Shown here: piece after piece, positions 15,578 to 18,669 of the stretch
How the letters are laid out: each line of letters opens with the position of its first letter
Numbering within the stretch: the first letter of the stretch is position 1
IMG/VR virus record: IMGVR_UViG_2617270991_000004
Reading direction: 5' to 3' (one strand)
Source of the DNA: a virus
Taxonomy: Duplodnaviria > Heunggongvirae > Uroviricota > Caudoviricetes
DNA length: 19,512 bases
The notes under the pieces: model-generated
Database searches by the model: none
Seen by the model: the letters and a program-made list of their open reading frames with translations, nothing else
Told to the model about the DNA's origin: nothing
Program-made: the position numbers and the translations under genes

Positions 15578-15927
15578 TTGAACTTCCCCGGACAAAATCG
15601 ACTCATCTAAAGATTTACAGCTCTTTTTATTATCAATATGTTAAAAGTAAAATAAACAGATGTTCAATAACACGAATACAAAAACGTGCTGAAATTCAAT
15701 GAATCCATTTCTGTGTCATCAATTAATAGTGATAAACATCCGGCTTCTTCCACCATCGCACCGGACAGGCGACTATGAGGGGACAACGCCGCGCTCCGTT
15801 AACGCGGTAAACCCCGGTGTGTATCGTTTTTGATTATCCCCGCACACTCGCGCAGAGGAGTCTCCCTGTCGGGCTGCGGTCTCTGTTAATGCGGGGATAC
15901 GGCGACAATACCGCGCATCAGCAAAAC

Positions 15928-16395
15928 TTATTTCAGGCACTGAGTGCGGATATAGTCCTGTGCCCCTTCCAGTTGCTTCTGCATCGTCATCAGCCGCTCT
16001 CTGAGGGTGAAATAATCCCGTGTAACGGTGTCTGCCAGTTGGGGGCCGGTTGCATTATCCACGCGGGCGGTGCCGGTGGCTTCACGCACGGGACCTGGAC
16101 AGGTGGCGTTGATCCGCAGGCTGCGGTGACCAGCGGCAACGTCAGCGCGAAGAGTTTCATTTTCAGCTCTCGCATCGGCTAATTCCCTCGAGTATCTGGC
16201 ATCAAGTGCAGCAACATCACGCTGGCGCTGCTGCATATCAGTAATGGTTGCATTTGCCAGCTCCAGCTCACTGACTTTTTTATCGCGCTGCTCTTTGTAG
16301 GTTATGGCGTTATCACGGTAATGATTCAGCCCCAGACTAAGCGCACCACAGGCCACCAGCAGGGCAATGATGACCACGCACAGTACGCGGTTCAT
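15928..16395 (-). CDS. Rz: Spanin inner-membrane subunit Rz (i-spanin)
   Basis: 155-aa ORF with N-terminal TM segment and NHYRDNAITYK.QRDK, DMQ.RQRDVAALDA.Y..ELADA.AEN, RDYFTLRERL.TMQKQLEG, matching recalled lambda Rz. Confidence 0.93.
   Translation of the reverse strand: MNRVLCVVIIALLVACGALSLGLNHYRDNAITYKEQRDKKVSELELANATITDMQQRQRDVAALDARYSRELADARAENETLRADVAAGHRSLRINATCPGPVREATGTARVDNATGPQLADTVTRDYFTLRERLMTMQKQLEGAQDYIRTQCLK
15990..16175 (-). CDS. Rz1: Spanin outer-membrane lipoprotein Rz1 (o-spanin), embedded in Rz in another frame
   Basis: 61-aa ORF wholly inside Rz. Signal peptide plus lipobox (LVTAAC), proline-rich, CVKPP.PPAWIMQP.P.WQTPL.GIISPSE matches recalled lambda Rz1. Confidence 0.9.
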   Translation of the reverse strand: MRELKMKLFALTLPLVTAACGSTPPVQVPCVKPPAPPAWIMQPAPNWQTPLHGIISPSESG

Positions 16396-16396
16396 T

Positions 16397-16495
16397 TCAC
16401 CACCAGCGTATCTGACCGATGAAATAACCGGAGGCCATAATCACAAACACCAGCCAGATAAGAATGAACTTCCAGGTGGATAATTTTTCAGCCAT
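16397..16495 (-). CDS. Hypothetical 32-aa single-TM peptide immediately upstream of Rz
   Basis: Hand translation gives MAEKLSTWKFILIWLVFVIMASGYFIGQIRWW with stop TGA 1 nt before the Rz ATG and GGGAGA 8 nt upstream of its ATG. The frame is open for 71 codons; an upstream GTG would give 57 aa. Confidence 0.3.
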   Translation of the reverse strand: MAEKLSTWKFILIWLVFVIMASGYFIGQIRWW

Positions 16496-16570
16496 CACTC
16501 GAATCTCCCGAATCAGTTTGCTAAAATCAAACACACTTTCTCCTTTGACTTTTCCAGAGTCAGGAAACAC

Positions 16571-16603
16571 AAAACCCCGCTTGCAGCCAACAAACGGGGT
16601 TTT
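16571..16603. terminator. Inverted repeat / hairpin between R and Rz (possible bidirectional terminator)
   Basis: Perfect 9-bp inverted repeat AAAACCCCG ... CGGGGTTTT with 15-nt spacer. T-rich on the 3' side in both orientations (TTTTTACTTTTATT on plus, UUUUGUGUUUCC on minus). Confidence 0.45.
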
Positions 16604-16693
16604 TACTTTTATTCACTTAGTTTTTGTCAGTTCGCAGGATTTCGTGTTATCCGTCCGTGTGAGCAAACCGCATTTTTCAGCAAAATATTCTGC

Positions 16694-17227
16694 TTATCTG
16701 TCAATTCCCCAGCACGCCAGCGCACTTTCCTGGTCGCGACGGGATACCTGACCGTAACAGTTGTTTGAGCGAATACGGCAGTCTCTGCCACCGTCCTTAA
16801 TCCACCAGCGAATCGCCTCACACGCTCCCCTGCGATCACCTGCATTAATTCGTTTATAAAACGTCGACGGAAAACACTTACCGGGGCCAATGTTGTACGG
16901 ACAGAATGACGCGATCCCCGCTTTCTGGGGTTCACTCAATGGCACTTTGATGTTTTTCTCCACCCATGCCAGCGCCTTATCACGCTCAATGGCGTTAACC
17001 CGGTCGCATTTTCCCTTCGACAGCTTCATACCAGGAATAACAGGCTTACCATCCACCCGGGTGGCTCCACGGCAGATGGTCCAGATCCCCGCACCATCAC
17101 GGTATGCCGTGGTGTGGTTACCTTCTTTTTCGTCAAGAAACTGGTCGAGGATTTCAGGCGCAGACGCCCCTGCACCAATCAGCGCCAGAACGGCAGCCGA
17201 CAGGCCGTATCGGATTTTTACGTTCAT
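16694..17227 (-). CDS. R: SAR endolysin (T4-lysozyme-like muramidase, GH24) with N-terminal signal-arrest-release domain
   Basis: 177-aa ORF. Gly/Ala-rich weakly hydrophobic N-terminus (YGLSAAVLALIGAGASAP), then lysozyme-like motifs (EGNHTTAYRDGAGIWTICRG...CYGQVSRRDQESALACWG). Resembles recalled phage 21 R and E. coli Qin-type prophage lysozyme. Confidence 0.9.
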   Translation of the reverse strand: MNVKIRYGLSAAVLALIGAGASAPEILDQFLDEKEGNHTTAYRDGAGIWTICRGATRVDGKPVIPGMKLSKGKCDRVNAIERDKALAWVEKNIKVPLSEPQKAGIASFCPYNIGPGKCFPSTFYKRINAGDRRGACEAIRWWIKDGGRDCRIRSNNCYGQVSRRDQESALACWGIDR

Positions 17228-17284
17228 GGATATTTATCAGGATTTATCGGTTCCGGCCCCCTGGATATGTTAAGTCTTCAGCCT

Positions 17285-17303
17285 GCCAGTGGTGGGCACT
17301 GGC
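17285..17303. promoter_or_regulatory. Palindrome GCCAGTG-N5-CACTGGC in the divergent region between R and the 104-aa gene
   Basis: Perfect 7-bp inverted repeat with 5-bp spacer, followed on the plus strand by GTTTTAT, about 50 bp upstream of the 104-aa ORF start. Could be an operator or a small terminator. Confidence 0.4.
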
Positions 17304-17355
17304 GTTTTATCTGCTGGCTGAAAATATATCTGACAATTCCAGTCGAGGATTAACC

Positions 17356-17670
17356 ATGCATAACCATCAACATAATTATGATTTATACCTGCAAGCCATA
17401 AATGAGCGGGTAAAATCGGAATGCCTTTTACTCCTCCCGCAAGAACACGAAGCAGTAAAGGCCATTCAGGCTGAACCGTATGGAGCTCTCACTACTGCAA
17501 CTCTCAGTATTATATCCGGAGCATTAACACCAACCTTGCTCCTTCGCCTGAAAGACAATATAGATGACTGGTTAAATGAAGAATTAAGTTACCTTGATTG
17601 CGAATGGGATAATCATTACGCCAAATCACAAAAAGATCGCCTGTTCAGACAATTATCAGGTAACAGATAA
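17356..17670 (+). CDS. Hypothetical 104-aa protein, convergent with the 330-aa gene (part of the S-R insertion)
   Basis: ATG at 17356 with a GAGGA SD 6 nt upstream; product MHNHQHNYDLYLQAINERVKSECLLLLPQEHEAVK...LSGNR. The track ORF 17104..17670 extends further 5' but that part is antisense to R. AT-rich; no family recognised. Confidence 0.6.
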   Translation: MHNHQHNYDLYLQAINERVKSECLLLLPQEHEAVKAIQAEPYGALTTATLSIISGALTPTLLLRLKDNIDDWLNEELSYLDCEWDNHYAKSQKDRLFRQLSGNR

Positions 17671-17676
17671 CAGTAC

Positions 17677-18669
17677 TTATATCCGCCCTTTGAGATAATT
17701 CAGCCCCGGCTGGAGCCAGCCATCAGGCTCTTTCTTAAAGGGCGGAGTATTGAAATCACGAAGAAGGACCTCCCGCACCGCAGTATCCCTGTCTGCACCA
17801 CTGGCAAGCGCTTCAATCTCAGCAGCTACCTGCAGATATCCCATGCAACGGCCAACGCGCTTCATCAGCCCCTGCTTTTTATTGTTCTTCAGGTAATCAA
17901 TGGCAAATTCAATGAGCTCCTCACTGTGCTGGTGCGATGGAGGTGTTACTTTCCCATTTTCTGAGATGGTTATTTTCCCACCATCACCGGATACAACAAA
18001 GGATGGCCGGTTACACTCCCATTCCAGCTCACTGAAATTATCATTATGAATACTGAAACACTCTGCGAGATTTCTGCTCATCACTTTCCGGCAATAATCG
18101 TAAAACGCCGCAAACTGCTGCTCATCGCGGCGTTTTTTTTCAGGCTGCTGAAAATGCTCTTTCAACAGTGAAGCGCAGTTCAGGCGCGCAGCTAATTCAA
18201 GAATAGTTTCTTTCATTTCATCTGCTGCAAGCACCTCATTTTTTGTTGGGGTGCTTTTTTTCAATTCAGTAACACAGCACTCCAGTTTTTCAATGCGTGA
18301 TTCAATATCATCTTTTTCTGACCGCAGTGTTGACGGCGGCATCTTCAGAGCATCAGTAATTCTTCCCGGTAGCTTTCCTTTGTAGGTTATCAACACATCC
18401 TGCGCCTCTAAAATTATGGGGCGCTTTTCTGGCAACGGTTCATCCCCTTCACATAACCCGGCAGCAATATCCATGAAAAACTGCTTCGCCTGCTTTTTCG
18501 CCTCAGCTTCGTAAAACTCCAGCGTGGCACCTTCAGTACGGTCAAGACTAATCGCCACATTTGGCAACAACAGTGGCGGATACCCACCAATTTCCAGTGC
18601 CACAGTAACAGCTATCTTATCCGGGTAATGATTTATCCCTTTTACAACCAGTTCATATTTTTTATTCAT
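17677..18669 (-). CDS. Hypothetical 330-aa protein inserted between holin and endolysin
   Basis: Long ORF whose ATG lies 3 nt after the holin stop (GAG TAG ACG ATG); the holin 3' end GGGGAGAG acts as SD. AT-rich relative to flanking phage genes. Predicted central coiled coil (DDIESRIEKLECCVTELKK...ILELAARL). No family recognised. Confidence 0.75.
   Translation of the reverse strand: MNKKYELVVKGINHYPDKIAVTVALEIGGYPPLLLPNVAISLDRTEGATLEFYEAEAKKQAKQFFMDIAAGLCEGDEPLPEKRPIILEAQDVLITYKGKLPGRITDALKMPPSTLRSEKDDIESRIEKLECCVTELKKSTPTKNEVLAADEMKETILELAARLNCASLLKEHFQQPEKKRRDEQQFAAFYDYCRKVMSRNLAECFSIHNDNFSELEWECNRPSFVVSGDGGKITISENGKVTPPSHQHSEELIEFAIDYLKNNKKQGLMKRVGRCMGYLQVAAEIEALASGADRDTAVREVLLRDFNTPPFKKEPDGWLQPGLNYLKGRI

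Follow-up and report, generated by a model that had tools for sequence, protein, structure and literature searches.

The spacer between the endolysin gene R and the i-spanin gene Rz of a Caudoviricetes genome (IMG/VR record IMGVR_UViG_2617270991_000004; 19,512 nt, called the window here) carries a small open reading frame (ORF) that is almost certainly a real, conserved gene. Its product is predicted to be a 45-aa single-pass membrane peptide, and together with a terminator-like stem-loop upstream of it (SL1) the ORF very probably forms one mobile cassette, a unit of approximately 215 bp (about 16397-16612) that recurs both inside and outside phage lysis cassettes. The original prediction had drawn attention to a spacer of about 300 bp, here measured at 298 nt, holding a hairpin and a 32-aa membrane peptide whose stop lay 1 nt from the Rz start. 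That junction and the membrane-peptide gene abutting Rz were both borne out, the latter by its PHROG match and by selection on its sequence, and the gene is mostly unannotated; the length of the product and the assignment of the hairpin were not. The features on which the argument depends are listed by window coordinates.

16396..16693: R-Rz spacer, 298 nt.
16571..16603, both strands: SL1, terminator-like stem-loop with an A-run 5' and a U-run 3', at the left end of the mobile cassette; it looks bidirectional.
16540..16546, minus strand: Shine-Dalgarno (SD) sequence AAAGGAG, 5 nt before the GTG at 16534; the SD and a GTG or TTG start are conserved.
16397..16534, minus strand: 45-codon gene VFDFSKLIREIRVMAEKLSTWKFILIWLVFVIMASGYFIGQIRWW, GTG start at 16534 and TGA stop at 16399-16397; member of PHROG 6632.
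16493..16509, minus strand: internal ATG at 16495-16493 (Met14) with GGGAG (16509-16505) 9 nt upstream; possible second start for a 32-aa form.
16409..16471, minus strand: predicted transmembrane (TM) helix, approximately residues 22-42, with G36xxxG40.
16393..16402, minus strand: junction TGG TGA A ATG, that is, the last Trp codon, the stop, 1 nt, and the Rz start.

The ORF was assigned to PHROG 6632 by a hidden Markov model match (E 1.8e-29) in which residues 28-72 of the 72-aa open frame align with profile positions 1-45 of 45; the 32-aa form matches the same profile at E 5.5e-20. Pfam, NCBIfam, and PADLOC returned no match for the 45-aa peptide, and PADLOC returned none for five neighboring mini-peptide types either. 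A set of 5.8 billion proteins gave 38 relatives, none with a name beyond 'hypothetical' or 'phage protein' and most of them called at 45 aa, and a profile search of 1.84e9 representatives yielded 40 clusters spanning several Enterobacterales genera and Azoarcus. The N-terminal motif SK(L/I)IRE(L/I)RxMxEKLPxW(K/R)F is the best conserved part of the family, with E10, R12, M14, and F23 almost invariant in the alignment of the profile-search family.

Selection at the amino acid level was evident between divergent lineages. Among E. coli, E. fergusonii, and Salmonella copies, the Nei-Gojobori ratio of nonsynonymous to synonymous substitution (dN/dS) was 0.09-0.20 in frame and 0.75-8.5 in the control, the two shifted frames of the coding strand. 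The proportion of nonsynonymous differences (pN) was also well below that of synonymous differences (pS) when Yersinia, Edwardsiella, and Brenneria copies were included, and pN was lower than pS in both halves of the ORF; in the C-terminal half, 10 synonymous and 0 nonsynonymous changes separated Brenneria from Symbiopectobacterium, and 8 and 2, respectively, separated Salmonella FSL SP-016 from Edwardsiella. In a sample of 80 phage contigs picked by Rz similarity alone (the Rz-anchored sample), the frame was intact in all 46 spacers that carry this ORF family, termed type A. The frame conservation and the synonymous bias that the original prediction had proposed looking for in related prophages were therefore both found. 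ORFs of 32-45 codons are common by chance, with dozens in the ORF list of the window; what sets this one apart from chance is how it compares across relatives. A few of the protein-set relatives (P0026, P0027, P0031, and P0036) are frameshifted, which counts against a functional gene. The suggestion that the spacer might hold remnant sequence was rejected because the frames are intact and because the pN < pS signal is lost in shifted frames.

The product most likely starts at GTG 16534 and has 45 aa, not the 32 aa first proposed from ATG 16495, as judged by the SD, the relatives, and the PHROG 6632 profile. A GTG or TTG start preceded by an SD was kept in all divergent DNA copies, and initiation at ATG 16495 would omit 13 residues from the region of the family motif. 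This ATG may be, at most, a second start giving the 32-aa form. Among the 19 representatives (<90% identity) used for codon comparison, Met14 was present in 19, and across the family it was always preceded, 6-9 nt upstream, by a GGAG-containing motif in codons 9-10; were this GGAG to serve as an internal start signal, the 32-aa form would be a real second product. A 57-aa reading from GTG 16570 was rejected, since how far the frame stays open above GTG 16534 varies widely among relatives, and since it crosses the hairpin.

The gene is common and seldom annotated. We counted 1348 copies, mostly unannotated, in 924 of 5426 complete E. coli genomes (~17%), including the Stx1 phage H-19B and prophages of O104:H4. 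Phage CP-1639 annotates an identical 45-aa ORF before Rz (EC_CP1639_39), whereas PGAP usually leaves the ORF uncalled. The ORF itself is thus already known, as a PHROG without characterized function and with few annotated records, and the relationship to PHROG 6632 and to EC_CP1639_39 is one of direct sequence membership; no function, hairpin, mobility, or nucleotide constraint is noted in the PHROG 6632 records. One further ORF overlaps the gene on the opposite strand.

16464..16751, plus strand: 95-aa ORF; CP-1639 annotates an opposite-strand 'hypothetical protein'.

The AlphaFold model (pLDDT 86) comprises a helix at residues 4-17, a break, and a second helix at residues 20-44. Five K/R residues precede the TM helix and one follows it, and by the positive-inside rule the N-terminus, an amphipathic helix (residues 4-17), would be cytoplasmic. 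G36xxxG40 is common across the family and the hydrophobic core is conserved in the alignments, while the RWW tail, the only 3 residues past the TM helix, is retained in a copy with no spanin after it (locus L100), which argues that RWW is not merely an in-frame ribosome-binding site for Rz. Taken together, the model and the charge distribution suggest a single-pass inner-membrane mini-protein with a cytoplasmic amphipathic N-terminal helix.

SL1 is the second conserved element of the spacer. The perfect 9-bp inverted repeat with T-tracts on both sides that was first noticed here was confirmed at 16571-16603, where AAAACCCCG (16571-16579) and CGGGGTTTT (16595-16603) are flanked by A/T runs, and in RNA of the coding (minus) strand the stem extends to 14 bp, G-U pairs included, around a 5-nt loop (-21.7 kcal/mol, z -4.3); the plus-strand fold reaches -14.4 kcal/mol. 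A terminator scan called SL1 on the minus strand with 14 pairs, and the GC-rich stem followed by a U-run is that of an intrinsic terminator, such that we describe SL1 as terminator-like. T-richness was nearly equal on its two strands (7.3 vs 6.7 of 10). Compensatory double changes were found at 7/13 stem pairs across 14 diverse copies, and the distance from the GC core of SL1 to the start codon was 36-43 nt in 60/61 unique copies in which a script found the hairpin (64 in total). The outlier was L226, for which the script chose another upstream hairpin; at approximately 2690-2790 of that locus, in a tail-gene region, three tandem terminator-like hairpins (two strong ones, then the cassette's own) stand directly before the peptide gene. 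With gathering thresholds applied, Rfam yielded no family for the window or for 12 related loci, and a sub-threshold rimP-leader match on the plus strand (16538-16627) was attributed to the terminator-like shape. A second stem, SL2, is tentatively proposed, in which the pyrimidine run UUUCCU (16562-16567) could pair with and occlude the SD; accessibility of the SD was low in only some family members.

The hairpin preceded the ORF in copies from E. coli, Salmonella, Citrobacter, Edwardsiella, Yersinia, Brenneria, Symbiopectobacterium, Azoarcus, and GC-rich contigs, with flanks that differed. SL1 had originally been taken for a feature of the R/Rz junction, yet it moves with the peptide while the flanks change, and we therefore assign it to the peptide gene and not to R. 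In E. fergusonii, a copy encoding an 82% identical peptide lies 1 nt before an i-spanin of the DUF2514 type, behind a GH19 endolysin and a Phage_holin_8 holin, and its similarity to the window starts just above the hairpin and stops at the stop codon. Most copies are co-directional inside phage operons, and similarity ends just upstream of the hairpin. Further copies were collected by a genome scan and by a degenerate codon-pattern scan, in which 117/119 pattern hits were true members, and Salmonella, Citrobacter, Edwardsiella, and other contigs paired the cassette with additional holins and endolysins. In all, the cassette precedes i-spanins of two families (Rz or DUF2514) in at least five kinds of lysis cassette, its partners including GH19, lysozyme, GH108-like, and other endolysins and three holin families, always with the 1-nt gap. 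A Citrobacter braakii prophage (L103) has two matches to the Rfam small RNA (sRNA) family STnc100 (439-557 and 1119-1329) and three tRNA genes upstream of its holin, and in Salmonella phage FSL SP-016 (L005) a 38-aa hydrophobic ORF, MTMSKRDVSALCFLMAAAVAISGNDGWGWLIFAGIIIL (1386-1502), overlaps the end of the endolysin gene and weakly matches phrog_14810 (E 4e-4).

Other copies are not located in lysis cassettes. At L228, L200, and L236, and at L105/L197 of Yersinia, a baseplate spike gene (GpV apex motif) stands on one side of the cassette and Baseplate_J on the other. The cassette was also found after a gene for an LPD38 giant protein in Brenneria and Symbiopectobacterium, before that of an SLT-domain virion protein in Azoarcus, and amid toxin-antitoxin modules next to a terminase (L100). 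Standalone copies with their own downstream terminator were also recovered (L223, L269, L304, and L275). The stem-loop, with its 5' A-run and 3' U-run, was present at all non-lysis copies. Neither Rz nor a signal-anchor-release (SAR) endolysin or a pinholin is an obligatory partner of the peptide. The association with Rz is positional, within one prophage group, and not universal, because the cassette also occurs at these non-lysis sites; the proposal of a dedicated lysis accessory was not supported as it was stated.

At the junction itself, the ORF stop (16399-16397) is separated by a single A (16396) from the Rz ATG (16395-16393). The small ORF has a strong SD, while G-rich UGGUGGUGA is the sole SD-like element for Rz in the window, which suggests translational coupling, whereby ribosomes terminating on the small ORF would be handed over to Rz. 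The TGGTGGTGA-N-ATG junction was seen with peptide types A, B, and D and with both Rz and DUF2514 spanins. R and Rz had been described as normally near-contiguous. This is so in K-12 Qin, where R and the spanin gene rzpQ (DUF2514 type) overlap and the leader ORF is absent; it is not so in the present phage group, in which spacers of the Rz-anchored sample ranged from 293 to 1413 nt (the longest being that of L030), all of them with small ORFs. An automated rule placed a small TM ORF before Rz in 79/80 of the contigs, and in the 80th such an ORF ends 7 nt upstream. The types that occupy the slot are as follows.

Type A, 46 contigs: the present ORF family.
Type B, 28 contigs: ends in ...AIAVLVWAIRWW; phrog_4493/1115.
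Type C: begins MSDKLIT...; phrog_4906; in 933W-like phages it follows an ant gene.

Another class of spacer, 642 nt long and representing 19/83 measured spacers, has four head-to-tail ORFs (A', C, B', and B) before Rz (L040 936-1500 and 18 similar loci). These array ORFs are chained, the SD of each lying within the last codons of the previous ORF or the two overlapping as GTGA, and types B, B', and C returned dN/dS values of 0.08-0.35 with variation biased to third positions. All PHROGs of the array (4906, 1115, 4493, and 3246) are function-unannotated. On this comparative evidence, the R-Rz junction regularly holds one to four conserved mini membrane-protein genes, apparently translationally chained, that annotation pipelines skip. 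In E. fergusonii (L090 1255-1407), a mini TM ORF, MSEKGADRAGVILAVAALISALALLVWAASWVKWW, ends in KWW-TGA-T-ATG and is followed by an apparent spanin-start stump, MSRVKFKSKNPDC*, and then by the type-A cassette, a layout that points to recombination, with the TGGTGGTGA-N-ATG junction or the hairpin as its site. Phage GER2 (L006, ~1640-1670) has the same hairpin and SD, then an 8-codon ORF (MGREVLSL*), then a type-B peptide before Rz; here, the part of the type-A ORF beyond its start appears to have been exchanged.

The wider setting is that of a lambdoid prophage. Window positions 15900-17300 are 100% identical to a lambdoid prophage of E. coli strain B1-56. The lysis genes are on the minus strand of the window, and a class II holin is annotated upstream in that prophage.

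16694..17227, minus strand: R endolysin, 177 aa (Phage_lysozyme, PF00959, 5.6e-24); upstream neighbor of the spacer.
16613..16693, minus strand: 3' trailer of R, approximately 80 nt, directly after the R stop; kept in most Stx phages regardless of downstream content.
15928..16395, minus strand: Rz i-spanin, 155 aa (PF03245, 6.1e-48; phrog_13).
15990..16175, minus strand: Rz1 o-spanin, embedded in Rz.

The N-terminus of R has a hydrophobic segment resembling that of phage 21 R, and the H-19B homolog is annotated 'similar to bacteriophage 21 R protein'. For most of the 323 phage records matched by the spacer, the shared part is confined to query positions 1-86/95, with varying downstream content (ant, other peptides), and the breakpoint of the shared R trailer falls just before the hairpin. 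Upstream of R, the lysis cassette of the window is interrupted (17228-18669; L001 3829-5270): ~1.1 kb separates R from the holin and from a YdfR-family gene that is truncated and that PGAP calls a pseudogene. The intervening stretch holds a plus-strand 104-aa hypothetical gene (~17357..17670) and a minus-strand 330-aa ORF (17677..18669) whose 5' end is the YdfR fragment, and in relatives including FORC_069 the holin, YdfR, and R are contiguous. Just upstream of R and inside the inserted segment, a terminator-like hairpin of 8 pairs followed by TTTTATCTGC is present on the plus strand (17284-17304). The K-12 Qin small proteins YnfQ/R/S/U are located elsewhere, none of them in the R/Rz slot, and a literature search placed the prophage sRNAs AsxR/AgvB and the Pas sRNAs upstream of the holin and not in the R-Rz spacer.

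Within the coding region, two blocks of synonymous sites were frozen across the 19 representatives. In codons 3-5 (GAT-TTT-AGC), F4 was TTT in 13/13, codon 4 ended in T in 19/19, and S5 was AGC in 18/18; in codons 10-12 (GAG-TTG-CGA), E10 was GAG in 17/18, L11 was TTG in 11/11, and R12 was the rare CGA in 16/18. Other codons drifted, with R9 using five codons, F23 split between TTC (13) and TTT (6), and L18, L25, and L28 mixed. The blocks also hold in GC-rich copies, and in GC-rich codon usage TTC and GAC are the expected choices. Read on the opposite strand, they spell TCGnAn-17 nt-TGnTAnnnT, with TCGCAA/TCGAAT exactly where a -35 hexamer would lie. Among 47 unique copies, the extended -10 TGnTAnnnT was present in 47 and a T-C-G start at the -35 position in 44. 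The pattern points to a candidate antisense promoter and transcript.

16499..16527, plus strand: candidate antisense promoter, with -35 TCGAAT (16499-16504), a 17-nt spacer, TGc (16519-16521), and -10 TAAAAT (16522-16527).
16534..16613, plus strand: predicted cis-antisense RNA, ~78 nt, starting near 16533-16535, with SL1 and UUUUUACUUUUAUU as its 3' end.

The predicted RNA folds into an open, single-stranded anti-SD 5' part and a terminator (-21.9 kcal/mol, z -3.8), the 5' part being complementary to the start codon, SD, and 5' untranslated region of the peptide mRNA. Its existence would explain both the fixed stem-loop distance and the U-runs in both directions, and we regard it as plausible, if a little short of probable. 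A promoter-like site called by the scan at 16412-16441 on the plus strand was set aside, being within chance expectation and not conserved in Salmonella copies. Sense-strand pairing of the two frozen blocks was likewise discounted, as it would break in window-type sequence, where codon 11 is ATT and not TTG.

The account that we tentatively prefer, while placing it somewhat below an outright likelihood, is of a mobile mini membrane-protein cassette that is antisense-silenced and late-acting. Because no sense promoter was found in the cassette, by scan in the window or by eye on several copies, its sense strand would be transcribed only as part of whichever operon carries it, which in the window is that of the Q-dependent late transcript for lysis. 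An antisense promoter in codons 3-12 would yield the ~78-nt RNA ending at SL1 and covering the SD and start codon, which would keep the peptide untranslated in the lysogen. Late transcription would then swamp the antisense RNA and the peptide would be made. A membrane-active peptide could, late and at the inner membrane, perturb the membrane or bind a TM protein and in that way aid or tune envelope disruption, although this step is speculative, and ribosomes ending at its stop would pass straight to Rz. A role specifically in lysis is speculative and rather unlikely. Doubtful too is the broadest version, an undescribed family of type-I-toxin-antitoxin-like cassettes, promoterless in the late operons of many Proteobacterial prophages, whose late-released peptide depolarizes or weakens the inner membrane and whose translation feeds Rz.

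Several observations weigh against parts of this account. The candidate -35 is weak (3/6 matches), and a standard promoter scan of the window did not call the antisense site. The G-U pairs of the upper stem (7-8 cases) slightly favor folding of the sense RNA over that of the antisense RNA (3 A-C cases). The frozen sites could instead serve translation, either as an AU-rich region after the start or, in the case of GGAG, as an SD for Met14. SL2 seems to covary by eye, but stems of at least 5 bp occurred in 98% of real and 76% of shuffled sequences, and the stem search gave no separation. The search for a sense promoter, by a scan of the window and by eye on several copies, found none, unlike in classical type I loci. 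A lysis-specific role, lastly, is not implied, because the cassette is also found in baseplate operons and at other non-lysis sites.

The alternative that best survives, although we think it less likely, is an ordinary late accessory gene without an antisense RNA. SL1 would then act in the sense direction only, as an intrinsic terminator or attenuator that Q-modified polymerase transcribes past, or as a stabilizing element or processing site of the mRNA; the frozen sites would serve initiation, through low structure after GTG and an internal SD for a 45/32-aa pair of the kind known from holins, and the peptide would modulate lysis timing or a spanin or holin step. The greater stability of the sense hairpin and its calling as a terminator on the minus strand fit this explanation, as do the G-U pairs and the GGGAG placed 9 nt before an invariant Met14 in all lineages. 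That the ORF abuts i-spanins in five or more kinds of lysis cassette also speaks for it, as does the fact that the B, B', and C families, with dN/dS of 0.08-0.35, make coupled chains in the same slot. A sense-only gene, however, leaves unexplained why TTG CGA (codons 11-12) and the codon-4 third-position T are frozen in GC-rich hosts, and why the two blocks fall in exact 17-nt promoter register on the other strand. Nor does it account well for a hairpin that goes with the peptide and not with the upstream gene, or for a cassette that also occurs outside lysis cassettes.

Less probable still is that the cassette is moron-type cargo, an inner-membrane protein serving the lysogen or infected cell, for example in superinfection exclusion or inhibition of a host membrane protein, with the R/Rz boundary simply tolerating insertions. 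In HK97, gp15 is such a moron, located in the tail region and coding for an exclusion protein of the inner membrane. The cassette is additional DNA between genes that adjoin or overlap in relatives, it is found at several module boundaries of unrelated prophages (baseplate, virion-protein, and toxin-antitoxin regions), and some copies have their own downstream terminator, while the R/Rz slot also accepts ant genes and other mini-ORFs. Against such cargo, expression from a repressed prophage is doubtful when no sense promoter was found in the cassette; the L226 copy sits behind two further terminators, and PADLOC returned no match. It is very improbable that the ORF is a functionless leader that only delivers ribosomes to a weakly initiating Rz start. 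The stop 1 nt from the Rz ATG, the strong SD of the ORF compared with only UGGUGGUGA for Rz, and the use of the same junction by different upstream peptides would all suit a leader, yet purifying selection acts on the amino acids across genera, the family motif is kept in copies with no spanin following, and K-12 Qin overlaps R and rzpQ with no leader ORF. A chance ORF or decaying remnant in a noncoding spacer, for which the many chance ORFs of similar length, the usual silence of PGAP, and the few frameshifted copies could be cited, is effectively refuted by the intact frames, pN well below pS, and the 40 profile clusters over several Enterobacterales genera and Azoarcus.

An antisense-silenced cassette invites comparison with type I toxin-antitoxin systems. 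In SymE/SymR, a cis-antisense RNA covers the 5' end of the small toxin gene, and the present gene resembles type I loci in encoding a hydrophobic single-TM peptide of <60 aa, in its prophage location, and in the candidate antisense RNA over its SD and start. In the Stx2 prophage Sp5, which carries hokW-sokW, HokW is made on induction and aids phage release (PMC8621323). The present peptide differs in having no similarity to Hok or to other Pfam/NCBIfam toxin families; its cassette, moreover, has no toxin promoter of its own that we could find and sits co-directionally in late operons with its stop next to Rz. Holin/antiholin pairs from dual-start genes, such as lambda S105/S107 and phage 21 S68/S71, offer a second comparison. 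Like these, the peptide is a small membrane protein in a lysis cassette, and its two candidate starts, GTG1 and ATG14, are conserved and in frame, each with an SD-like element. It has, however, one TM segment and an RWW in place of a charged C-terminal tail, it is encoded downstream of the endolysin with a separate class II holin upstream, and it matched no holin family in Pfam or NCBIfam.

Lambdoid morons, in the concept of Juhala and Hendrix (HK97 gp15, lambda bor/lom), have a promoter upstream and a terminator downstream. The cassette shares with them the character of a discrete extra gene for an envelope protein, placed at module boundaries between genes that are adjacent in relatives, but its terminator-like hairpin lies upstream, and no sense promoter was seen in the copies inspected. 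The Rz/Rz1 spanins of lambda and phage 21 are related by position, the i-spanin being the immediate neighbor of the peptide with a stop/start junction that suggests co-translation. The peptide nevertheless has neither a periplasmic domain nor a lipobox, is not itself part of the spanin pair, and is absent from lambda and K-12 Qin, and spanin models hit Rz only. Literature searches returned no paper describing an ORF in the R-Rz interval and no match to the peptide sequences, and neither the literature searched nor Rfam/Pfam yielded a description of the hairpin linked to the ORF, of a mobile cassette, of its repeated occurrence ahead of i-spanins, of the sister mini-gene arrays, or of the promoter-like synonymous constraint. 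Collectively, these comparisons identify the gene as one for a small phage-encoded membrane peptide, possibly under type-I-like control.

Holin, endolysin, and spanins are taken to be the full inventory of the lysis cassettes in lambdoid and Shiga-toxin phages, and the mini-genes at the R-Rz junction add to that inventory. If the peptide affects membrane integrity or the timing of lysis, it would bear on the release of phage and of Shiga toxin. If the antisense RNA is real, the cassettes would represent a new toxin-antitoxin-like family and a clear case of a promoter held in the synonymous sites of the gene that it silences.

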